Made by a program: the position numbers and the translations under genes
IMG/VR virus record: IMGVR_UViG_2541047912_000004
Coordinates: 1-44,088 of that record
Direction: 5' to 3' (one strand)
Length of the DNA stretch: 44,088 nt
Origin: a virus
Taxonomy: Duplodnaviria > Heunggongvirae > Uroviricota > Caudoviricetes
Shown here: piece by piece, positions 1 through 36,186 of the stretch
Numbering within the stretch: the first letter of the stretch is position 1
Layout of the letters: every line of letters begins with the position of its first letter
Notes under the pieces: model-generated
Database searches by the model: none
What the model was told of the DNA's origin: nothing
What the model saw: the letters and a program-made list of their open reading frames with translations, nothing else

Positions 1-1131
1 CTAAGCCGCGTGCTGCGATTCAGGGTTTACAGGCTCTCCGTGGGCTAACACTGCCAGCCCGGCAGCTTTAATATTACGTGCCGCGTTAATGTCGCGATCA
101 TGGTCTGCGCCGCATTCAGGGCAGTGCCATTTACGAACATTAAGAGGCATTTTTTGCATGGTGAAACCGCAGCAACTACAGCATTTTGAGGACGGTAAAT
201 ACTGGTCAATGGCGACCACTGACCGCCCGGCCCATTTGCCTTTGTACTGGAGCTGGCGAACAAGTTCGCTCCAGCCTGCGTCAGCTATTGCTTTAGACAG
301 CTTCGGGTTGCGGATCATGTTTTTCACCTTGAGGGATTCGACGCAAACAACTTGGTTTTCGTTAATCAGTTTGCGGGACAACTTGTGCAGATTGTCCATC
401 CGGCAATCGGCGATTTTCGCGTGGAGTCGGGCGACCTTTAAGCGGGCTTTAATACGGTTTCTTGAGCCTTTTTGCTTCCTGCTTAAACGTCGCTGTAGCA
501 GCGTTAATCGCTTCGCATATTTAGCGGTGTGGCGGGGATTGTCGGTTTTGAATCCGGTATCGGTGACGAATAAATCTTTTAAGCCCACATCAATGCCGAC
601 CGTTTTAGCGGTAACAGGCATTGATACAGGTTCAAACTCACACAGGCAGGAAACAAAGTACCTGCCAGCGCTATCTCTGGAAATGGTAACGGTTGACGGC
701 GCAGATGGTAATTCTCGACTCCAGCGAACATCCAGCGGCGACTTGCTCTTTGCTATATACAACTCGCCGTCACGGTGTTTAAACGCGCTGGCAGTGAACT
801 CAGCCACCTGTTTGTGCCGTTTGCTTTTGAAAGCCGGATATGCAACTCGTCCAGCAAAGAAGTTAGCAAAGGCGGCTTGTTGGTGGCGCAACGACTGCTG
901 GAGGGGAACGCAGGAAACATCATTCAGCCATATGTATTCAGGCTCTTTTTTGAGCGCCGTAAGGCGAGCGTTGGCCTGTAGATAACCGATCTTTTCTTTT
1001 CGCTCGTAGTACGCATCGGTACGCCAACGAAGGATGGAATTGTAGACGAAGCGCACACAGCCAAACGTCTGAGCTAAAAGCTCAGCCTGCTCAGTTGTCG
1101 GGTAAAACCGGTATTTATATGCGCGTTTCAT
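1..1131 (-). CDS. tnpB: IS200/IS605-family TnpB (OrfB) RuvC-like nuclease; solo copy, no tnpA in window
   Basis: 376-aa ORF with the typical OrfB N-terminus (YKYRFYPT..EQ), RuvC-like motifs (GIDVGL, DxDINAARNI) and a C-terminal CxxC..CxxC zinc finger. ATG at 1129..1131, stop at window position 1..3. Lies outside the prophage. Confidence 0.85.
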   Translation of the reverse strand: MKRAYKYRFYPTTEQAELLAQTFGCVRFVYNSILRWRTDAYYERKEKIGYLQANARLTALKKEPEYIWLNDVSCVPLQQSLRHQQAAFANFFAGRVAYPAFKSKRHKQVAEFTASAFKHRDGELYIAKSKSPLDVRWSRELPSAPSTVTISRDSAGRYFVSCLCEFEPVSMPVTAKTVGIDVGLKDLFVTDTGFKTDNPRHTAKYAKRLTLLQRRLSRKQKGSRNRIKARLKVARLHAKIADCRMDNLHKLSRKLINENQVVCVESLKVKNMIRNPKLSKAIADAGWSELVRQLQYKGKWAGRSVVAIDQYLPSSKCCSCCGFTMQKMPLNVRKWHCPECGADHDRDINAARNIKAAGLAVLAHGEPVNPESQHAA

Positions 1132-1239: not shown

Positions 1240-1716
1240 ATGAAACTCATCAGTAACGATCTGCGCGATGGCGATAAGCTGCCGCATCGTCATGTCTTTA
1301 ACGGCATGGGTTACGATGGCGATAATATTTCACCGCATCTGGCGTGGGATGATGTTCCTGTGGGAACGAAAAGTTTTGTTGTCACCTGCTACGACCCGGA
1401 TGCGCCAACCGGCTCCGGCTGGTGGCACTGGGTAGTTGTTAATTTACCCGCTGATACCCGCGTATTACCGCAAGGGTTTGGCTCTGGTCTGGTAGCAATG
1501 CCAGACGGCGTTTTGCAGACGCGTACCGACTTTGGTAAAACCGGATACGATGGCGCAGCGCCGCCGAAAGGCGAAACCCATCGCTACATTTTTACCGTTC
1601 ACGCGCTGGATGTAGAACGTATTGATGTCGATGAAGGTGCCAGCGGCGCGATGGTCGGGTTTAACGTTCATTTTCACTCTCTGGCGAGTGCCTCGATTAC
1701 TGCGATGTTTAGTTAA
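1240..1716 (+). CDS. ybhB: YbhB-like PEBP/UPF0098 family protein (host gene flanking the lambda attachment site)
   Basis: 158-aa protein with no signal peptide and PEBP-family-like sequence. GGAGG Shine-Dalgarno upstream of the ATG. Position next to the lambda attB-like junction matches the ybhB-att-ybhC arrangement I recall for E. coli. Confidence 0.8.
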   Translation: MKLISNDLRDGDKLPHRHVFNGMGYDGDNISPHLAWDDVPVGTKSFVVTCYDPDAPTGSGWWHWVVVNLPADTRVLPQGFGSGLVAMPDGVLQTRTDFGKTGYDGAAPPKGETHRYIFTVHALDVERIDVDEGASGAMVGFNVHFHSLASASITAMFS

Positions 1717-2343: not shown

Positions 2344-3342
2344 ATGTCTGATATTCGACAAAATAGAATAGAGTTAAATGAAGTGCATATAGCTCGCTCC
2401 ATGGCTATATTTCTAGTTGTTTTACTTCATTCTTCAGGTGCTTTTTTTATGCAGTTTGGAGATCATTGGTGGATTGTTAATTTATACAGTTCTTTTTCAA
2501 GGCAGTGTATAGGTCTTTTTTTTCTTATCACTGGATACCTTTTTTATGAAAAAAACATAAACCCAACAGCACACCTAAAAAAAGGAGTGTCGAGATTGAT
2601 AATACCATTCATATTTTGGTGGGTGGTATATTATATCTACAATACAGAGATTAACAACAAATCATATAATTCTATATTTCAACCAAGTGAGGTACACCTT
2701 TGGTTTATGTATGCATATATTTGTATATATATGTTTTTACCAATAATTTGCAACTCATTAAAACACATACCAACATATTACATTTTAATTATTGTAAGCA
2801 TGCTTTTTTACTCAAATTCCATTGTTCCTGTAGTTGATAAAACGATAATGAAGGTAACATGGTTTGATGTAAAACTAGTGTCTGAAAATGGGATATATAT
2901 CCTTATTGGGGCAATAATAAGGAGATATAACGATAAAATAAAAAAATGCAATGCAGTGATACCATTGGTGATTATTGTTATGTCGTGCCTGTTAACATCA
3001 ATGGCGTCTAGTTGGTGGTCTGAAATAACAGGCAGGCCTGAGCAGTTTTTCTTTAAAAATACATCTCCACTTGTATTAATATGTGTTATTTCTTCATTTA
3101 CATTATGCATGTCATACTCAAAAATAATTAGCAAAAGATTAATGAATTTATTTACATCAATATCAAATGTTTCATTTGGTATATACTTCGTCCATTTCTT
3201 TTTTGTTCGAGAAATTAGACTCGGGTATAATCAAGAAAACGCATATTTCATGATACCATTGCTAACAATCATTTATTTTTTAATGTCATATTGCATATCA
3301 ATAATTCTAAGCAAGATCCCTTTGCTTAGAAAAGTAATATAA
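2344..3342 (+). CDS. Integral-membrane acyltransferase family 3 protein (O-antigen acetylase-like, candidate lysogenic conversion gene)
   Basis: 332-aa highly hydrophobic multi-pass protein. The N-terminal region carries an R..A..LVVLLH motif typical of acyltransferase-3 enzymes. Strongly AT-rich. Convergent with the tailspike, with adjacent stop codons. Placement after the tailspike and next to att parallels oac in phage Sf6. Confidence 0.75.
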   Translation: MSDIRQNRIELNEVHIARSMAIFLVVLLHSSGAFFMQFGDHWWIVNLYSSFSRQCIGLFFLITGYLFYEKNINPTAHLKKGVSRLIIPFIFWWVVYYIYNTEINNKSYNSIFQPSEVHLWFMYAYICIYMFLPIICNSLKHIPTYYILIIVSMLFYSNSIVPVVDKTIMKVTWFDVKLVSENGIYILIGAIIRRYNDKIKKCNAVIPLVIIVMSCLLTSMASSWWSEITGRPEQFFFKNTSPLVLICVISSFTLCMSYSKIISKRLMNLFTSISNVSFGIYFVHFFFVREIRLGYNQENAYFMIPLLTIIYFLMSYCISIILSKIPLLRKVI

Positions 3343-5589
3343 TTATGGATTATTAACCTTCCATCTTTTATCATAGTAATGCAAATATCCCTGAGACGTT
3401 AGTGTCATATGGACAATCGCTTGGGATATTTGCGCGTTCTGAAAATTAACTCTAATAAATACTTGAGTGCCAATTGTTATTTTTGATACAGATATCCCGT
3501 CAAGAGTCTTGTCTCCTTGTATTTTATTAACCCAAACACCTGACGAAGACAAGGTTGCCTGATCCTTTCCGCTTATACTAAATATAATTTTACCTCCTGT
3601 TGCCAGTGAGGTGTTTACTCCATTTTGAGATATTGGAATTATTGTAATTTCACCAGCAATGAAAACACCATTTTTGTATTTAGATTCCTCACCTTGTTCA
3701 CAAATTAAAATATCAATACATCTACCCCATGGTACTAGGATTGTTGCATTTTCAGTTTTTACTTGTGGATATACAGCTGAAACACCTGCAGATTCGAAAT
3801 TTTTTGCTGATAAAACAACTCCGTCAGATCCATTTCTAAATCCCATTCCTGTATGATCACCGTATGTCCTTCCATGAGAGATGAATCCTCTTACATACTC
3901 TTCGGATACTACGCTACCAGTGGTTTCCTTCTGAAAGATAAATGTTTCACCAAAAGAAAAACCACGACATTGGTATTGGCTCTGATAATTTTCTGAGTTC
4001 TTAAAAAAGGAAATGCCTTTATATGCTGTTACATAGCCAGATCTAAATTGAACGGAAACAGGGGTTGTTTGTTCATCTGGAGGTAACTCCACAAAATGTG
4101 TAACATTTTGGCTGTTTGATTCCTGTAACCATACAGAAACACCATCTATAATCATGGTTGAAAATCTACTGTTTATTTCTAACTCAGAAAAATCAAGAAC
4201 ATGATCACCTGTAACACCCTCAACTCCAAACCCATCAATACTTAAAGACCTGAACTGATAGAATTTATGCGGTAACTCACAACCATCAGCTGCAATATTC
4301 ATTGCGCTAGTGTACATTAATGGGTAAGGACTTATAATTGGTTCATATGTTTCTCTATCTATTGCAGCCCCCCAAAGATACCCAACATTACAATGTCTTG
4401 CCCAGTTGGAAGAGAATGTAGTAGATGTGCCAGCCAAACCGAAACCATAGATACAATCATATGCTTGGTTGTTTGTAACATTACTGACAAAGCATGATAA
4501 GGGAAGTGCAAATTTATAATGTAGAAATATGTTATTTTTAATATCATATTCACTACCCCCGCCAAAGGTTTGTGTTTGACCAGAAATGACCAATGGGCTA
4601 CCTGAATATTCATCGTCAGCGTTGCGAAAACACATATTCTTTACTTTAAGATTGTGCCCCCAACTTCCCATAACAAAACCACCACTTCCTGATGTATAAA
4701 CAATACTTTTTTGTGGATTAATCCCATATAGATTTAGACTAATCCCTTCCCATCTAAACTGGCTAATGTCAATTTGAGTGTTACCAATATATATAGGCTG
4801 GTCTATGAAAACAGGAAGTTTAGTTAGATAAGCTTTATTAAGTGCTAATCCATCATTTGTTACACCTGTTAAATCAACGCCACCCATGCTTGGCGCTCTA
4901 GGATACCCTGTGGCCTGAATAGTACTCCAGTCAATATATGGAGCATCCATCCACGCTCCAAACATACGTGGTGTTACGTACCCCTTACCTTGAAGATCAC
5001 GTTTCCAGCGTTTACCACCCGCAGTGACAATGACCATGCCGTTATCATCTGCAGAAGTAGAATCTGTGAAATCGGCCACAAACAGACCACCACCAGTATC
5101 ACCTGATACTGTCGGCTTCATGCCTGTAGTGTGGAAGTCGACGAAAATCTTTTGCTGATCTCGCTCAGGCTCAATTGTCCTTAACATTGCTATATCAGGG
5201 CATGTCCCGATGTATTTAAGACCGTCTTCCCCTGATAGAGATACTTTAAGCTGATCAGGATCATACTTCAGCACATTTGGGAATTTGAACTGCTGTGCAC
5301 CATATGCATCATAAACAGCCATAGAATGGCCTTGCACAGTTACGAACTTGGCAATCTGTCCGTTATATACCGGATATCCAGCATCGTTAATGATGATTGG
5401 TTGCGAAACAGGAACGTGAGAACCGTCTTCATTCTCCACATAAACCTGAATCTGGTTTTCAGGATTTACCGGGTCAGTGTCAATTTTACCGATATAAATT
5501 TTGCCATTGGCTACGGCTTTAAAAGAACGAGCCATAGTGAAGAGTTGCGAAGGCATGCTTACCACAACATTTGCGGTGATATCTGACAT
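3343..5589 (-). CDS. Tailspike protein (P22 gp9-like N-terminal head-binding domain, divergent C-terminal receptor-binding domain)
   Basis: The N-terminus [43 protein letters not shown] closely matches the P22 tailspike head-binding domain. Start set at the internal ATG 5587..5589 (GGAG upstream); the ORF track extends 16 codons further. Confidence 0.85.
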
Positions 5590-5677
5590 TTCATTGCTCC
5601 AGACGAATGATATGATGCAACCATGATGTGATTGCATACCGAAATGGTACTATTGAGTATTTATCCAGTAGGTTACG

Positions 5678-31450: not shown

Positions 31451-32101
31451 ATGAAAACTCAATTGATGGGAGAGCGCATTCGCGCTCGGAGAAAAGAACT
31501 CAAGATCAGGCAGGCCGCACTTGGAAAGATGGTCGGCGTGTCTAATGTTGCCATATCTCAGTGGGAACGCTCTGAGACAGAGCCAAATGGAGAGAATCTT
31601 CTCGCCCTGGCTAATGCGTTGAAGTGTTCCCCTGACTATCTGATGAAAGGAGAGGAAAGTCTTTCAAACATTGCCTATCACAGTAGGCATGATCCAAGAG
31701 GGTCATACCCTCTGATTAGCTGGGTGAGCGCAGGATGCTGGATGGAAGCTGTAGAACCATATCATAAGCGTGCAATAGATAACTGGTACGATACAACCGT
31801 AGACTGTTCAGAAGATTCGTTTTGGTTGGACGTGAAGGGAGACTCAATGACGGCTCCGGCCGGTCTCAGTATCCCTGAAGGAATGATAATACTCGTCGAT
31901 CCTGAAGTAGAGCCGCGTAACGGGAAACTGGTAGTTGCAAAGCTCGAAGGAGAAAACGAGGCAACTTTCAAGAAGTTAGTTATTGATGCAGGCAGGAAGT
32001 TTCTAAAACCACTTAACCCACAATATCCGATGATCGAGATCAACGGAAACTGCAAAATCATCGGCGTAGTTGTCGATGCAAAACTAGCAAACCTTCCATA
32101 A
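31451..32101 (+). CDS. c2: Prophage repressor C2 (P22-type, LexA-like autocleavage domain)
   Basis: 216 aa; the N-terminal HTH (QAALGKMVGVSNVAISQWERSETEPN) and C-terminal S24 peptidase-like domain (GDSM..KLVVAKL) are very similar to P22 C2. Confidence 0.9.
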   Translation: MKTQLMGERIRARRKELKIRQAALGKMVGVSNVAISQWERSETEPNGENLLALANALKCSPDYLMKGEESLSNIAYHSRHDPRGSYPLISWVSAGCWMEAVEPYHKRAIDNWYDTTVDCSEDSFWLDVKGDSMTAPAGLSIPEGMIILVDPEVEPRNGKLVVAKLEGENEATFKKLVIDAGRKFLKPLNPQYPMIEINGNCKIIGVVVDAKLANLP

Positions 32102-32102
32102 G

Positions 32103-32128
32103 GGGGCATTCGCCCCCTTTTTTTTATT
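32103..32128 (+). terminator. Rho-independent terminator immediately after c2
   Basis: GGGGGCATTCGCCCCC hairpin followed by TTTTTTTT. Confidence 0.75.
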
Positions 32129-32168
32129 TCCTTTAAAAATCAAAGCCAAACTTAAGTTACGAAAGAAA

Positions 32169-32222
32169 ATTTAAGTTTTCTTCAAAAATACTCTTGACCA
32201 TTAATTAAAGAGATCTTAAATT
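32169..32222 (+). promoter_or_regulatory. OL operators and PL promoter
   Basis: -35 TTGACC (32194..32199), 17-bp spacer, -10 TAAATT (32217..32222). A perfect operator attaaagagatcttaaat (32204..32221) overlaps the -10, and a second near-consensus operator lies at 32169..32186. Confidence 0.6.
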
Positions 32223-32268
32223 TAAGCCATCAGCAGGACGCTGGAAGCCAAACGGAACAGATTGGCAG

Positions 32269-32308
32269 GCTCTTTAACATTGATGGGATTGTCCCGCCGA
32301 AATGCGGG
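32269..32308 (+). promoter_or_regulatory. nutL (boxA plus boxB)
   Basis: boxA GCTCTTTAACA (32269..32279) followed by the boxB hairpin CCCGCCGAAATGCGGG (32293..32308), identical to the nutR boxB. Confidence 0.7.
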
Positions 32309-32710
32309 AACCAAAGAGTAGTTGGCTTTGGGATTGGATGAATGAGCAGGCTGATGCTCGACCAATGTATAAACAGCGCTCATGGCAAGCAGTAACCAAT
32401 CTGCGCCTCAAGACAGCGTCACTGGTAGTGCGGGCGCTCTAACCAGTAAGCCGGAGTTCAGCACCGGCCATCCAATCGCCAAAGTCAATTCCATAGGCGT
32501 TATGCAGCCGCCACCATATTCAAGAAAGCTGCACAAGAGGTAGGAGGATTTATGTGAATACTTACATTCAATTGAGAGGTTAATTAAATAGAACTGATCG
32601 AGCAGAGTCCATAAAGGCTCATAAATGCTCTTCCATCCCCGTCTAATTGGCGGGGAAGGAAACCACTTTGTAATAAAAAAAATTCCAAAGTTGTTTCATC
32701 GGAGGTCAAC

Positions 32711-33010
32711 ATGACAGTAGTCATTACATATCTGGCTGACGATAACGCCAGAAATCGCCGCAGAGCACGCAGACAGGCTCAACGTGAACAGGCAATGCAA
32801 GAGCAGCGACTGGCGCGAAAAATTGCGCTAAAGCTCTCTGGTTGCGTCAGAGCAGATAAAGCAGCATCACTCGGAAGCCTTTGCTGCAAGAAGGCAGATG
32901 AAGTCGAGCGTAAACAGAACCGTATTTACTACCGCAAGCCACGCAGTGAAATGGGTGTGACTTGTGTTGGTCGCCAGAAAATGAAATTAGGCAGCAAACC
33001 ACTTATTTGA
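32711..33010 (+). CDS. N-like transcription antiterminator (arginine-rich motif)
   Basis: 99-aa basic protein with an N-terminal arginine-rich motif (DNARNRRRARRQAQREQA). First gene downstream of PL and nutL. Confidence 0.65.
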   Translation: MTVVITYLADDNARNRRRARRQAQREQAMQEQRLARKIALKLSGCVRADKAASLGSLCCKKADEVERKQNRIYYRKPRSEMGVTCVGRQKMKLGSKPLI

Positions 33011-33018
33011 GGTGAGAT

Positions 33019-33489
33019 ATGACAAAATCATGGAGCGTACCTTTTCCTGAATCAGAAACTGAACATGATGGAATGCCTGTTTTCTGGAGATTCCAAGCGA
33101 CAGTTGAAGAAGATGGAATCAAAATATTCGCACTTCAATATATAGCTTTTCATCAGACAGAGCATTATGCATGGTTGGTTCCTGCGCATTGGATTGTTAA
33201 TTTTAAACCAGCACCAAATCAGTGGTTACAGGAATGGAAACAAAGGAGAAATAGATATGCAATTAAGAAAGTAGCAAAAAATGCAGAAAGATCTTTTGCA
33301 TTCCCAACGAAGAAACTTGCCATTGAGAGTTTATTGCGCCGGAAGAAATACCATTTAATGAGAATCAAACAAGATTTGGCTGTTGTATCAACTCTTGTTG
33401 ATGGGATGAAGAATATTGATACATCAACACCAGATATTGAATATAACTTTGGGCACAACCAAGAAACAGAAAATTGGGTATTTTATTAG
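33019..33489 (+). CDS. Hypothetical protein, first gene of the AT-rich island downstream of N
   Basis: 156-aa ORF with no recognisable motifs; markedly AT-rich codon usage. Followed by hairpins including a terminator-like GCCCTC-CAGTGT-GAGGGC-GATTTTTTA (about 33598..33625). Confidence 0.5.
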   Translation: MTKSWSVPFPESETEHDGMPVFWRFQATVEEDGIKIFALQYIAFHQTEHYAWLVPAHWIVNFKPAPNQWLQEWKQRRNRYAIKKVAKNAERSFAFPTKKLAIESLLRRKKYHLMRIKQDLAVVSTLVDGMKNIDTSTPDIEYNFGHNQETENWVFY

Positions 33490-33639
33490 TACGAGTAAGC
33501 ACTGTGTATTCATTCCAACGAGTGAATACACGGAGCAATGTCGCTCGTAACTAAACAGGAGCCGACTTGTTCTGATTATTGGAAATCTTCTTTGCCCTCC
33601 AGTGTGAGGGCGATTTTTTATCTATGAGGATATGAACAG

Positions 33640-34008
33640 ATGTCAAACATCAAAAAATATATCATTGATTACGACTGGAAAGCATCAATAGAAATTGAAA
33701 TCGACCATGACGTAATGACAGAGGAAAAACTTCACCAGATTAATAATTTCTGGTCAGACTCTGAATGCCGACTCAATAAACACGGCTCTGTATTAAATGC
33801 TGTATTAATCATGCTGGCGCAACATGCTCTGCTTATAGCAATTTCAAAAGACCTAAATGCATATGGTGTTGTTTGTGAGTTCGACTGGAATGATGGAAAT
33901 GGTCAGGAAGGATGGCCTCCAATGGATGGTAGCGAAGGAATAAGAATTACCGATATCGATACATCAGGAATATTTGATCCAGATGATATGACTATCAAAG
34001 CCGCCTGA
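33640..34008 (+). CDS. Hypothetical acidic protein (122 aa), second gene of the AT-rich island
   Basis: By hand count about 22 Asp/Glu versus 9 Lys/Arg; AT-rich; no recognisable catalytic motif. Confidence 0.5.
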   Translation: MSNIKKYIIDYDWKASIEIEIDHDVMTEEKLHQINNFWSDSECRLNKHGSVLNAVLIMLAQHALLIAISKDLNAYGVVCEFDWNDGNGQEGWPPMDGSEGIRITDIDTSGIFDPDDMTIKAA

Positions 34009-34101
34009 GCGCGGCTTTACCGCATACCAATAATGCTTCACGAGAGGTGTTTATTCATGAGCGTAAACGCTGATTAATGAACGCAGTTGATAGGATATAA
34101 A

Positions 34102-34614
34102 ATGGCATTTATAAAGATTCTTGAATTAATTTCCCTAAGTGAGATTAATAATGTTGTCAAATATAACCCTATTTCTGGTGAGTTCACATGGCTAAAATCT
34201 TATGGAGCAAGGAAGATAGGTGGAACTGCCGGAACAATAACAACAAGCGGCTACTTAAGGATTTTCATTAACGGAAGACACTATGCTGCACATAGACTTG
34301 CATGGATTATCACTTTCGGTGTTGAGCCTGAAGGTATTATCGACCATATAAATGGCATAAAGACAGATAACAGAATTTGCAATCTGAGGCTTGCAACTTA
34401 CTCACAGAATTCAATGAATAGTAAAATAAACACCCTCAACAAATCAGGTTGCAAAGGAGTCACATGGAAGAAGGAAAGTAGAAAGTGGGCTGCCTATGGG
34501 AAATTAAACGGGAAGAAAAAACATCTAGGGTACTTTAATGAATTAGAAGATGCCAAAAAAGCTTACTGCGACTTTGCCAGAAAGCATCACGGCGAATTCT
34601 ACAGGAGCAAATAA
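34102..34614 (+). CDS. HNH endonuclease with a C-terminal AP2-type DNA-binding domain (homing-endonuclease-like)
   Basis: HNH motif region (AHRLAWIITFGVEPEGIIDHINGIKTDNRICNLRLATYSQNSMN) and an AP2-like segment (GVTWKKESRKWAAYGKLNGKKKHLGYFNELEDAKKAYCDFARKHHG). Start set at the ATG 34102 (AGGA Shine-Dalgarno); the track ORF begins at a TTG at 34087. Confidence 0.75.
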   Translation: MAFIKILELISLSEINNVVKYNPISGEFTWLKSYGARKIGGTAGTITTSGYLRIFINGRHYAAHRLAWIITFGVEPEGIIDHINGIKTDNRICNLRLATYSQNSMNSKINTLNKSGCKGVTWKKESRKWAAYGKLNGKKKHLGYFNELEDAKKAYCDFARKHHGEFYRSK

Positions 34615-34748
34615 TGAATGAATATATTTTAGCTGGTAGCGGCGTCATGTCCGCTTTCTACCCGCACGAATCTGAATTATCACGCCGAGTTAAACAATTA
34701 ATCAGAGCAGCAAAGAAACAACTGGAGGCGTTATGCGCAATGAAATAG
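34614..34748 (+). CDS. cIII: CIII-like small protein (44 aa; putative FtsH inhibitor)
   Basis: Hand-translated: MNEYILAGSGVMSAFYPHESELSRRVKQLIRAAKKQLEALCAMK. The ES.L.RR..L pattern resembles the CIII amphipathic core. GGAG Shine-Dalgarno. Not in the ORF track. Confidence 0.55.
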   Translation: MNEYILAGSGVMSAFYPHESELSRRVKQLIRAAKKQLEALCAMK

Positions 34749-34885
34749 CCATCAATCACCAGATGCTTCGTGCGGCACAAAACAAAGCAGTAATAGCCAG
34801 ATTTATTGGTGATTCCAAAATGTGGCTTGAAGCAAATAAAGCGATGAAATCAGCTATCAACCTTCCGTGGTATCGCAGGAAATGA
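34733..34885 (+). CDS. kil: Kil-like small protein (50 aa)
   Basis: Hand-translated: MRNEIAINHQMLRAAQNKAVIARFIGDSKMWLEANKAMKSAINLPWYRRK. The ATFIGD.KM motif resembles lambda Kil as I recall it. Confidence 0.45.
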   Translation: MRNEIAINHQMLRAAQNKAVIARFIGDSKMWLEANKAMKSAINLPWYRRK

Positions 34886-34966
34886 GTTTTACAGATAACT
34901 GGTCAGACGAAGAATTCATTCGTCAGATGAACAAAATGCTCAATCAGCACAAAGAACAGGAGAAAG

Positions 34967-35278
34967 ATGATGATTCTGACTCTGAATGATAAGCGTGAAA
35001 TATCGCAAATAATCGCAAGTTTTACTGATGAAGATTACGAACGAATCAACAGTGAAGTTGATCGCCTCTGCAAACGTTGCGACCCAATAAGCGAAATGCT
35101 TCGCTCATATAAACCAGATGAACACACTAAGGACGCTATCGACTGGCTGGAAGATGATGACTGTAACTATCAGGAAAAAGCCGCTGAATGGTTCTGGGAT
35201 GCAATAACCGAAAGAGTTAAGGCTGAATATGCCTTCGCAATATTCAAACGCAGACATATTTATGGAGAAGCAGCATGA
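34967..35278 (+). CDS. Hypothetical acidic protein (103 aa) immediately upstream of recT (Gam position)
   Basis: AGGAG Shine-Dalgarno followed by ATGATG; stop overlaps the recT ATG (ATGA). No recognisable motif. Confidence 0.5.
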   Translation: MMILTLNDKREISQIIASFTDEDYERINSEVDRLCKRCDPISEMLRSYKPDEHTKDAIDWLEDDDCNYQEKAAEWFWDAITERVKAEYAFAIFKRRHIYGEAA

Positions 35279-36186
35279 GCAATATCGTTGAATTCGTTAA
35301 ACAGCAGGAGCAGTTATTCTGCGGAGCATTGACTGAACAGACGGTGACATGGGCTAAGGAAAGCCAGTTTGCAATTCAGTATTTCCAGAAAAACGATTAC
35401 CTGGCTAAAACAGCACTGGCAAATCCAACCAGCGCACAGAACGCCATCATCAATGTTGCGGCGATCGGTATCACCTTAAACCCTGCAAGCAAACTGGCTT
35501 ATCTAGTTCCGCGCGATGGCATGGTTTGCCTTGATATCAGCTATATGGGATTGCTTCATATTGCAATGGAGTCTGGTGTTATCTCATGGGGTCAGGCAAA
35601 ACTTGTTCATGCTAACGATACCTATGAGTCAAACGGGCTTGATAAAGCACCAACCCATAAATACAACGCCTTCGGTGATCGTGGTGATATCGTTGGCGTT
35701 TACTGCACAGTTAAGACGCCGGCAGGTGATTATCTAACGGAAGAGATGAGTCTGGCTGAAATTGAGGCTGTAAGGAAAACAAGCAAGGCGGCATTCAGCG
35801 ATAAAGGACCATGGGTAAATCACTGGAATGAGATGGCGCGAAAGACGGTCGTAAAGCGTGCAAGCAAGTATTGGCCTAAGGCATCACGTCTTGATAGTGC
35901 TATTCACGTACTAAACGAAGAAGAAGGTGTGTGGACTGAACCAGTTATGCCGCACAAATCAGAGGAAGATATCCGCGAAGATGAACGGAAACGCCAGCAG
36001 GAAATAATGGATAAAGCACAACTTCTTTGCGATGAAATGGCTCAGGCAGAAAACATGGACGATTTGAAGCGATATTTTGCAGAAGCATATCGCCTGACAT
36101 CTGGAATGAAATTGCAGCAGAACGTACAAGCCATTTACGCAGAATGCAAAGCGAAACTGGAGGTTGCCAGTGAGCAAACTATATGA
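35275..36186 (+). CDS. recT: RecT-family single-strand annealing recombinase
   Basis: 303 aa; the conserved region GPWVNHWNEMARKTVVKRASKYWP aligns with RecT (GPWVTHWEEMAKKTAIRRLFKYLP). Confidence 0.85.
   Translation: MSNIVEFVKQQEQLFCGALTEQTVTWAKESQFAIQYFQKNDYLAKTALANPTSAQNAIINVAAIGITLNPASKLAYLVPRDGMVCLDISYMGLLHIAMESGVISWGQAKLVHANDTYESNGLDKAPTHKYNAFGDRGDIVGVYCTVKTPAGDYLTEEMSLAEIEAVRKTSKAAFSDKGPWVNHWNEMARKTVVKRASKYWPKASRLDSAIHVLNEEEGVWTEPVMPHKSEEDIREDERKRQQEIMDKAQLLCDEMAQAENMDDLKRYFAEAYRLTSGMKLQQNVQAIYAECKAKLEVASEQTI

Follow-up and report, generated by a model that had tools for sequence, protein, structure and literature searches.

A probable mosaic of known lambdoid modules behind N in the early-left operon of a P22-like Escherichia coli prophage

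Positions 33019 to 34614 of the window (the whole stretch of 44,088 nucleotides that was analysed) very probably represent a mosaic of the early-left (PL) operon of a P22-like E. coli prophage, assembled from four independent modules, each of which has been sequenced before. The first would be orf156 (L0079 of 933W, approximately gp45 of HK97), which would encode an early protein directly after N. The second would be the lambda ral-ea10 spacer, predicted to encode the Hfq-dependent sRNA PreS (LPR1) up to tL2a. The third would be ea10, as the orthologue of lambda Ea10, and the fourth a rare free-standing HNH(-AP2-like) cassette, lying in place of the ea10-cIII spacer and of cIII codons 1-5. Judged by sequence comparison, all components are already catalogued, with at least 98% identity to genes or RNA of lambda, 933W, HK97 or RefSeq E. 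coli. The discovery value of the interval is small; what interest remains lies in the L0079/gp45 family. The features of the interval and its surroundings are as follows.

32711..33010, + strand: N antiterminator gene, given as context (phrog_271 at 5.4e-37; Pfam N_peptide, weak).
33019..33489, + strand: orf156, encoding a basic protein of 156 aa (pI 9.07); its start codon, preceded by the ribosome-binding site GAGGTGAG, lies 8 nt downstream of the N stop.
33499..33536, + strand: conserved hairpin opening the spacer that is homologous to lambda (inverted repeat; alignment with lambda and 933W).
33532..33619, + strand: putative PreS (LPR1) Hfq-dependent sRNA of about 88 nt, processed to about 68 nt (from about 33552); identical to lambda.
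33592..33619, + strand: tL2a intrinsic terminator, also the PreS terminator (8-bp G+C-rich stem, T6 tail).
33640..34008, + strand: ea10, orthologue of lambda Ea10, 122 aa, DUF2528 (119 of 122 residues identical to lambda Ea10; PF10800 at 1.9e-45).
33997..34018, + strand: 8-bp hairpin across the ea10 stop codon, with no T-run, kept in lambda (alignment).
34032..34051, + strand: weakened terminator-like hairpin in the spacer between ea10 and cIII; its 3' arm contains the left boundary of the HNH cassette.
34042..34631, + strand: HNH cassette of about 590 bp, delimited by alignment with the HNH-less S87, 933W and lambda and with the HNH-bearing 2017-02-2CC and EC6.
34102..34614, + strand: free-standing endonuclease of 170 aa, HNH_3 plus AP2-like (HNH_3 at 1.8e-15; phrog_99 at 1.2e-68; PADLOC HEase at 4.8e-5).
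34614..34748, + strand: cIII of the P22 type, PF08134 (Pfam cIII at 6.8e-26); codons 1-5 come from the HNH cassette.
34733..34885, + strand: kil, given as context (Pfam Lambda_Kil at 1.7e-20).

The initial annotation had described three plus-strand reading frames, and these were recovered at 33019-33489 (156 aa), 33640-34008 (122 aa) and 34087-34614 (175 aa, from a TTG). Its placement of the interval in the PL operon just after N was also confirmed, with orf156 in the slot that sieB-orf28-ral occupy in lambda. Minus-strand and small overlapping reading frames within the interval matched no PHROG and were taken as spurious. A block shared with Stx phages at about 98% begins in the 3' end of N, at about 32957 (megablast coverage from query position 358). 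The gene order is N-L0079-ssb(ea10)-cIII in 933W and N-gp45-terminator-cIII in HK97. The slot after N is hypervariable; across 82 related contigs it is filled by at least 15 alternatives.

Do the three genes belong together? They had been presented as a horizontally acquired island of morons with an undescribed defence, exclusion or counter-defence function, a reading that we regard as extremely improbable. The interval is indeed AT-rich relative to the window, its accessory slot elsewhere holds Ral or an exclusion-type membrane protein, and both orf156 and Ea10 are without an assigned function. The genes, however, are not inherited as a trio. Among the 82 PreS-bearing viral contigs that formed our sample, 11 carry orf156, 33 carry ral and 28 carry ea10; orf156 is accompanied by ea10 in 5 contigs and stands without it in 6, and the HNH gene is seen with and without orf156 and with and without ea10. 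By their presence and absence among relatives, orf156, ea10 and HNH assort independently and do not form a unit. Moreover, ea10 and its spacer are conserved lambda backbone, and PADLOC matches are limited to a chance-level Cas1_II and a homing-endonuclease model. The anatomy of a moron, with its own promoter and its own terminator, was found for none of the three genes (consensus scan): 8 nt separate N from orf156, and the stop codon of HNH overlaps the start of cIII. The three-gene island as a unit is largely refuted.

The compositional argument for such an island held in a modest form. The GC content of the interval is 38.0%, against 47.1% for the whole window and 49% for N, which places it at about the 5th percentile (5.3% of equal-sized windows are equal or lower), but cIII/kil differ little from it (42%), and the following early-operon genes are at 39-42%. 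The lowest GC of the window (33%) is found at 2-5 kb, outside the interval. Terminator-like hairpins had also been said to separate the genes. One canonical intrinsic terminator is present within the interval, at 33592-33613 followed by T6, whereas the hairpins at 33499-33536, 33997-34018 and 34032-34051 are either weak or not followed by a T-run; between 32100 and 35300, four terminator-like sites were counted, against 2.4 +/- 1.4 in shuffles. A consensus scan, which is weak evidence, found no plus-strand promoter-like site between 32222 and 34888, and the count of promoter-like sites was at chance (7 found against 7.9 expected).

The hairpin between the first two genes, read earlier as a moron boundary, corresponds to PreS/tL2a of lambda. 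Homology to the lambda ral-ea10 spacer starts at 33500, and the alignment reveals no difference from lambda over 33500-33623. The location and sizes of PreS and the 3' end at tL2a are described for lambda in a preprint (bioRxiv 10.1101/2024.10.31.621285); with the lengths given there, we placed PreS in the window by counting back from the terminator. The RNA would fold at -30 kcal/mol (z -2.9) and tL2a at -12.9 kcal/mol (z -4.5), and the 8-bp G+C-rich stem of tL2a with its U6 tail is an Hfq-type 3' end, as PreS requires. The HK97 annotation, too, carries a putative terminator after gp45. A scan of 32000-35500 against Rfam 15, from which PreS is absent, returned nothing real. In lambda, PL fires on induction or infection, and PreS builds up from the first minutes onward and increases the translation of DnaN (bioRxiv 10.1101/2024.10.31.621285). 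The 88-nt sRNA and its terminator are identical in lambda and the window, as is the order from sRNA to ea10 to cIII, whereas upstream of PreS lambda carries ral and the window orf156. By its identity to the lambda RNA, the supposed boundary hairpin is the functional sRNA PreS of lambda, kept among lambdoid phages with very different neighbours. Because N, orf156 and PreS all precede the first intrinsic terminator that could be detected, they would share an immediate-early transcript. Rho-dependent termination may take place between N and orf156.

No protein of the interval had been given a name before. This no longer holds for the second, which is lambda Ea10, or strictly for the first, which is catalogued as the hypothetical protein L0079/gp45, although it is indeed without a known function. 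The orf156 protein shows no difference from 933W L0079 (100% identity), is 99.4% identical to HK97 gp45 and matches phrog_1636 over its full length (2.7e-112, positions 1-156 of 156). Its gene differs from that of 933W by 6 synonymous and 0 nonsynonymous changes; on this basis and that of a confident structural model, orf156 is a real gene, and the substitution pattern indicates that it is under strong purifying selection. The position is likewise shared with 933W and HK97, upstream of the PreS terminator and at a distance of 8-60 nt from N, while the neighbours differ from those in the window: HK97 is without ea10, and 933W has a lambda-type cIII and Red genes. We found orf156 in 597 of 5426 complete E. 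coli genomes (about 11%), and most Stx phages among the matches carry it.

What does this protein look like? It matched nothing in Pfam or NCBIfam, its sole match in PADLOC was Cas1_II at chance level (E 0.018), and no transmembrane segment or known defence domain was found in it. An earlier AF2 model, built from 22 close homologues alone, was poor (pLDDT 59); the final alignment combined these 22 with 17 distant homologues from an exhaustive profile search and yielded a confident model (pLDDT 92.1). A search of this model against the PDB by fold gave no match, and sequence searches of the PDB with orf156, Ea10 and the HNH protein found nothing. The predicted fold occurs also in uncharacterised proteins of diverse phages, both virulent and temperate. 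Homologues lie in the early-left operon of Cronobacter, Rosenbergiella and Pectobacterium prophages, and T47, K87, R91 and K109 are invariant among distant members of the family, E46 nearly so. With lambda Ral and SieB, orf156 shares its place in the genome, between N and PreS, as well as a non-essential accessory status. It has no sequence or family similarity to Ral (66 aa) or to SieB, a membrane protein; orf156 is soluble, basic and 156 aa long, and its predicted fold differs from theirs.

We propose that orf156 would act as an early accessory protein of the lytic cycle rather than as a defence gene expressed from the prophage, because it lies upstream of the first terminator in the immediate-early transcript; the term accessory is reached by exclusion. 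The presence of fold relatives in phages of either lifestyle, virulent or temperate, would be a further argument for a lytic-cycle role. Could it be a SieB- or Rex-like protein, expressed by the prophage for superinfection exclusion or defence? Its slot holds sieB-type genes in some relatives and it occurs in 11% of E. coli genomes, but the absence of a promoter-like site upstream and the start 8 nt after N mean that orf156 should be repressed in lysogens. Since it also has no transmembrane or known defence domains, and homologous folds are found in virulent phages, we hold this role to be very unlikely.

As a rival reading, a more specific function can be put forward tentatively, as a possibility at rather less than even chances: orf156 may be an immediate-early counter-defence or host-takeover protein, analogous to Ral, that binds a host protein or nucleic acid. 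Several observations fit, namely its rank as first gene after N and 5' of the first terminator, its purifying selection and invariant residues, its fold relatives in phages of both lifestyles, and the early-left location of its homologues in the other three genera. In addition, orf156 and ral occur together in 0 of the 82 contigs, where about 4.4 would be expected under independence. However, this mutual exclusivity may be mere allele competition for one slot, and early phage proteins often have unrelated roles. In Pfam, PHROGs, NCBIfam, PADLOC and the PDB fold search, orf156 resembled no anti-restriction or anti-defence family; neither it nor Ea10 matched Ral, Lar, ArdA, Ocr, KlcA, SieB or PADLOC families (Pfam, PHROGs, NCBIfam, PADLOC), and the literature that we searched on L0079 and HK97 gp45 contained no functional study and reported no phenotype. 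It is possible, with the same reserve, that L0079/gp45 is a widespread phage family with a fold unseen in solved structures, made immediate-early with N, and a counter-defence or host-takeover factor that replaces Ral in lambdoid phages, Shiga-toxin phages included. The L0079/gp45 gene, which occupies the first slot behind N and is present in some 11% of the complete E. coli genomes, with a confident model and no solved relative of its product, is worth an experiment.

The second gene is the clearest piece of lambda backbone. Ea10 matches PF10800 (DUF2528) with 154.1 bits against a cutoff of 22, over profile positions 1-104 of 104, and it alone turned out to be homologous to a known Ea protein (lambda Ea10, 119/122). 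The gene sits between tL2a and cIII as in lambda, its flanks align with lambda, and the ribosome-binding site is shared; the proteins are 98% identical. Downstream, lambda passes straight to its own type of cIII, whereas the window has the HNH cassette and then a P22-type cIII. The gene is conserved among lambdoid phages (200 phage records at 95-99% identity) and goes under the name 'ssb' in old records. In lambda, ea10 is non-essential by CRISPRi, and Ea10 is an abundant early protein.

The strong acidity noted at the outset was borne out (pI 4.36, net charge -13 over 122 aa), and together with abundant early synthesis it would suit a DNA-mimic anti-restriction protein; the 'ssb' label in many records would suggest a protein that binds single-stranded DNA. 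We consider either role decidedly unlikely. Ea10 matches DUF2528 only, and not ArdA, Ocr, KlcA or the SSB OB-fold family (Pfam); it has no sequence relative in the PDB, and so acidic a protein is improbable as a binder of single-stranded DNA. The DNA-mimic idea was judged by family search and charge, and the charge is less extreme than in classical DNA mimics. The literature that we found describes the role of Ea10 as still 'not fully understood' and held no functional study linking it with defence. An identity of Ea10 with P22 gene 17 was considered, as the H-19B copy is labelled 'gp17', and dropped: no P22 record was among the tblastn matches listed, and the literature search was empty. A block to lambda replication initiation, reportedly mapped to ea10-ral by Sergueev et al. 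2002, was not used, as the citing papers concern the exo-xis region.

The third gene had been called an HNH-AP2 endonuclease, and the first half of that name is firm. The HNH_3 domain (PF13392) scores 56.7 bits against a cutoff of 24.8 and is intact, with its conserved His and Asn residues in the motif IIDHINGIKTDNRICNLRLATYSQN as read from the translation, whereas AP2 (PF00847) remains under its gathering score of 33.3 (29.2 bits, E 1.2e-6). From the TTG at 34087 the reading frame would encode 175 aa; the true start is likely the ATG at 34102, which lies behind AGGA, gives 170 aa and is used by RefSeq for identical copies. The TAA stop overlaps the cIII ATG (TAATG).

Relative to the HNH-less allele, the cassette takes the place of about 60 bp, which extend from the 3' part of the spacer between ea10 and cIII, through the ribosome-binding site of cIII, to the fifth codon of that gene. 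It is a replacement with fuzzy edges and not a clean insertion. The hairpin at its left edge is weakened to -5.5 kcal/mol in the window, against -8.5 in S87 and -9.9 in lambda, and between lambda and S87 it carries a compensatory change from C-G to T-A. The cIII N-terminus MNEYIL is linked to HNH in 5 of 5 IMG/VR contigs. HNH is present in 9 of 5426 E. coli genomes (7 at 97% coverage or more and 2 IS1-truncated copies), against 1108 genomes with the flanking cIII-kil segment, or about 1% site occupancy. The gene always abuts cIII and the empty sites can be aligned; it is thus optional, being absent from otherwise nearly identical genomes, and where present it occupies one constant site flanked by conserved genes. 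Its closest relative among the proteins encoded in the phage collection that was searched is 54% identical; the family is multi-copy in virulent siphophages, and relatives are labelled 'homing endonucleases'.

That the cassette has been swapped for about 60 bp of spacer and the first cIII codons fits a homing endonuclease, the possibility already raised at the start and the simplest reading of an HNH(-AP2-like) gene. Free-standing HNH-AP2 homing endonucleases form a class that was reportedly described by Magnani et al. 2004 and Balaji et al. 2005. With phage members of this class (HNH_3 plus AP2; phrog_99) the window gene shares the HNH_3 domain with a candidate AP2 partner, a size of about 170 aa, a free-standing intergenic site and presence/absence polymorphism; it differs in an identity of at most 54%, in its sub-threshold AP2 and in its residence in a temperate lambdoid early operon and not in a virulent phage.

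Might the endonuclease instead serve the phage, as a weapon against competitors or as a cofactor in packaging or recombination, and not be a selfish homing element? It is integrated in the operon through its TAATG coupling to cIII, it adjoins recombination genes and it weakly matches the PADLOC 'HEase' model. Yet it is found in only 9 genomes against the 1108 with flanking cIII-kil, it does not adjoin terminase genes, and IS1 truncation is already present among its copies; HNH_3 with AP2 is typical of free-standing homing endonucleases, multi-copy in virulent phages. A service to the phage seems unlikely. By its anatomy, HNH is probably a homing endonuclease. We envision that it would be read through from the operon, translationally abutted to cIII, and that it would persist and spread by cutting the HNH-less cIII-proximal alleles of co-resident phages. 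At about 1% site occupancy the cassette is not obviously invasive, and the altered cIII codons 1-5 linked to it are only suggestive of cleavage and copying by repair. As such, the cassette would offer a natural example of a homing-endonuclease-like element that, in a temperate phage, has rewritten the beginning of cIII.

In its structural half, the window, a P22-like E. coli prophage, shares 94-96% identity with vB_EcoP-720R6, Kapi1, CUS-3, Sf101 and similar phages. The early-left operon runs on the + strand in the order N, three ORFs, cIII, kil, two small ORFs, RecT and a Gp157-family gene. The initial annotation saw the three ORFs as a candidate for an undescribed defence, exclusion or counter-defence function. 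They all lie where it placed them, but the interval is not a novel defence island: it combines already catalogued lambdoid parts with a rare, probably selfish endonuclease gene; we regard the observation as partly confirmed and its interpretation as partly supported. The region contains:

31451-32101 (+), cI-like repressor
32100-32121 (+), terminator after the cI-like repressor
32194-32222 (+), PL-like promoter (consensus match)
32711-33010 (+), N, directly before ORF1
33019-33489 (+), ORF1 (orf156)
~33532-33619 (+), PreS small RNA
33640-34008 (+), ORF2 (ea10)
34102-34614 (+), ORF3 (HNH gene)
34614-34748 (+), P22-type cIII
34733-34885 (+), kil
between kil and RecT (+), two small ORFs
35275-36186 (+), RecT, followed by the Gp157-family gene

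For ORF3, the ATG at 34102 (170 aa, AGGA six bases upstream) is a better start than 34087 and is also the RefSeq start of identical copies. Directly upstream of RecT, orf103 (34967-35278, +) encodes an acidic early protein (pI 4.65, phrog_3486), and the 40-aa ORF before it (34867-34989, +) matches phrog_17766 and phrog_2123 ('recombinase') over their N-terminal part.

The interval had been called AT-rich, with genes separated by terminator-like hairpins. GC content is low (orf156 36.1%, ea10 38.2%, HNH gene 37.6%; whole interval 38.0% versus 47.1% for the window and 49% for N), a level as poor in GC as just 5.3% of equal-sized windows. Yet GC is low in cIII, kil and the following ORFs too (39-42%), and the true AT-rich extreme lies at 2-5 kb (33% GC). 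As for the hairpins, one is a canonical intrinsic terminator (33592-33613 plus T6), whereas those at 33499-33536, 33997-34018 and 34032-34051 lack T-runs or are weak. Between 32100 and 35300 we found four terminator-like sites against 2.4 +/- 1.4 in shuffles, which is not clearly over chance; the promoter and terminator scans score consensus matches only. AT content peaks next to the tailspike, in an Acyl_transf_3 gene (2344-3342, +) for an Oac-like O-antigen acyltransferase, which would qualify as a 'moron' more readily than the PL interval. Also part of this region are 3343-5637 (-), 1-1131 (-) and 1240-1716 (+); beyond the acyltransferase gene, the presence of a TnpB/IS605 gene and a PEBP-family gene probably signals the end of the prophage.

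Judged by sequence, ORF2 and the hairpin that precedes it are lambda sequences. Within the 150-bp spacer before ea10, 33500-33623 is identical to the lambda ral-ea10 spacer, which encodes the Hfq-dependent sRNA LPR1/PreS, a ~88-nt RNA processed to ~68 nt with its 3' end at tL2a; the RNA is already expressed by 10 min after induction and raises DnaN translation (bioRxiv 10.1101/2024.10.31.621285). Counting these published lengths back from the T-run places PreS at ~33532-33619, a segment that folds at -30 kcal/mol (z -2.9). Rfam 15 holds no PreS family, and the HK97 annotation marks the PreS terminator as a terminator after gp45. ORF2 itself, said to match no nameable protein, is lambda Ea10 (119/122 identical), with a full-length match to Pfam DUF2528 (1.9e-45). 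By tblastn, 200 phage records, among them lambda, 434, SfI and Stx phages, encode Ea10 at 95-99% identity; in 933W it is annotated 'ssb, similar to Ea10'. The family extends past lambdoid phages, since distant relatives (34% amino-acid identity) adjoin gemA among the early genes of the Mu-like Burkholderia phages phiE255 (NC_009237, 25147-25476) and vB_E427.

Historically noticed as an abundant early protein, lambda Ea10 is non-essential by CRISPRi; its role 'is not fully understood' (bioRxiv 10.1101/2024.10.31.621285), and a literature search found no functional study. Its acidity (pI 4.36, net charge -13) is the one property in line with the earlier idea of a DNA mimic, whereas Pfam gives no match to the ArdA, Ocr or KlcA families, nor to SSB; PDB sequences contain no relative.

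How are these parts assembled? We surveyed 82 IMG/VR contigs containing PreS with enough flank. The gene just upstream of PreS is ral in 33 and orf156 in 11 (13-14 of 82 by last-ORF clustering), and the slot otherwise holds one of more than ten other small ORFs, mostly uncharacterised; Nmad5 accounts for 9 contigs, a membrane protein of 149 aa for 7 and DUF7446 for 3. For ORF1, then, the proposal that this is the lambda ral/sieB position was right. orf156 and ral never occur together, against ~4.4 co-occurrences expected under independence. Downstream of PreS, ea10 is found in only 28/82 contigs; orf156 occurs with it in five and without it in six, and the HNH gene with and without each. Thus, PreS is the constant element and the three genes are independent modules, not one island. 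The hypervariable slot (loci L018-L136) maps to 33490-33500 here. Given its clean absence from several relatives, ea10 behaves as an optional cassette: in HK97 (2971-3166), EC6 (3440-3581) and comparison loci L013, L014 and L016, the PreS terminator is joined directly to the ea10 3' untranslated sequence. A mosaic junction lies inside the N 3' end (~32957), the N-terminal part of N being of a different type; from there to 34056, just past ea10, the window is ~98% identical to 933W and other Stx phages.

orf156 starts 8 nt past the N stop, behind GAGGTGAG, and in the stretch from N to the PreS terminator the consensus scan found neither a promoter-like site nor an intrinsic terminator. N, orf156 and PreS would therefore form one immediate-early transcript, and orf156 would act in the lytic cycle. 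The protein has no Pfam or NCBIfam match and no meaningful PADLOC match, but belongs to phrog_1636 (2.7e-112) and is 100% identical to 933W L0079 (six synonymous, no nonsynonymous differences) and 99.4% to HK97 gp45, which likewise lie directly after N. It is present in 597/5426 complete E. coli genomes at 95-100% nucleotide identity. Close homologues are confined to Enterobacterales prophages, lying between N and cIII in Cronobacter, ahead of a RecT/YqaJ/SSB block in Rosenbergiella and next to xis-int in Pectobacterium; more distant members occur in other phage contexts. An exhaustive profile search gave 87 cluster representatives at E<1e-3, mostly 130-160-aa phage proteins, and all those scanned are unannotated.

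The AlphaFold2 model (34 sequences) is confident (pLDDT 92.1, pTM 0.79): residues 19-55 form three long antiparallel strands, followed by two short helices, a short strand, a long helix of 33 residues (98-130) and a C-terminal tail that is also ordered. The distant alignment keeps T47, K87, R91 and K109 unchanged throughout, and E46 nearly so. Foldseek found nothing in the PDB (best E 0.74, TM <0.25). In BFVD, 13 viral proteins, all uncharacterised, scored E<1e-3; they belong to phages of Erwinia, Achromobacter, Delftia, Sinorhizobium, Rhizobium, Tenacibaculum and Cellulophaga, and we take several of these phages to be virulent. An early counter-defence or host-takeover role for the L0079/gp45 family is a tentative suggestion, and on balance doubtful.

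ORF3 had been named an HNH-AP2 endonuclease. The HNH part stands (HNH_3, 56.7 bits, His/Asn motif intact), while the AP2 match is sub-threshold (29.2 bits); it also matches phrog_99 (1.2e-68) and the PADLOC 'HEase' model (4.8e-5). Relatives are encoded in 2448 phage records, none above 60% identity (best 54%, Hafnia phage Meifeng); a virulent siphophage often carries several of them, and they are annotated as homing endonucleases. The gene is rare in complete E. coli genomes (seven copies at >=97% coverage plus two IS1-truncated), whereas the adjoining cIII-kil segment occurs in 1108. It is dispensable, as one copy, in a decayed prophage of E. coli WP8-S18-CRE-02 (L006, 2754-3805), is 5'-truncated by IS1A.

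In every case the HNH gene directly adjoins cIII, its stop overlapping the cIII start (TAATG). Aligning HNH-bearing with HNH-less alleles bounds the cassette at ~34042-34631, where it takes the place of ~60 bp that comprise the 3' part of the ea10-cIII spacer plus the ribosome-binding site and codons 1-5 of cIII. The cIII N-terminus is consequently MNEYIL, instead of MHFQL in HNH-less S87, and the MNEYIL allele carries HNH in 5/5 IMG/VR contigs, with or without ea10 or orf156. These features fit a free-standing homing endonuclease whose carrier allele would have an altered target. The spacer hairpin (34032-34051) weakens from -9.9 kcal/mol in lambda and -8.5 in S87, which differ by a compensatory C-G to T-A change, to -5.5 in the HNH allele, where the T-tail is also broken, which would make it easier for transcription to continue into the HNH gene.
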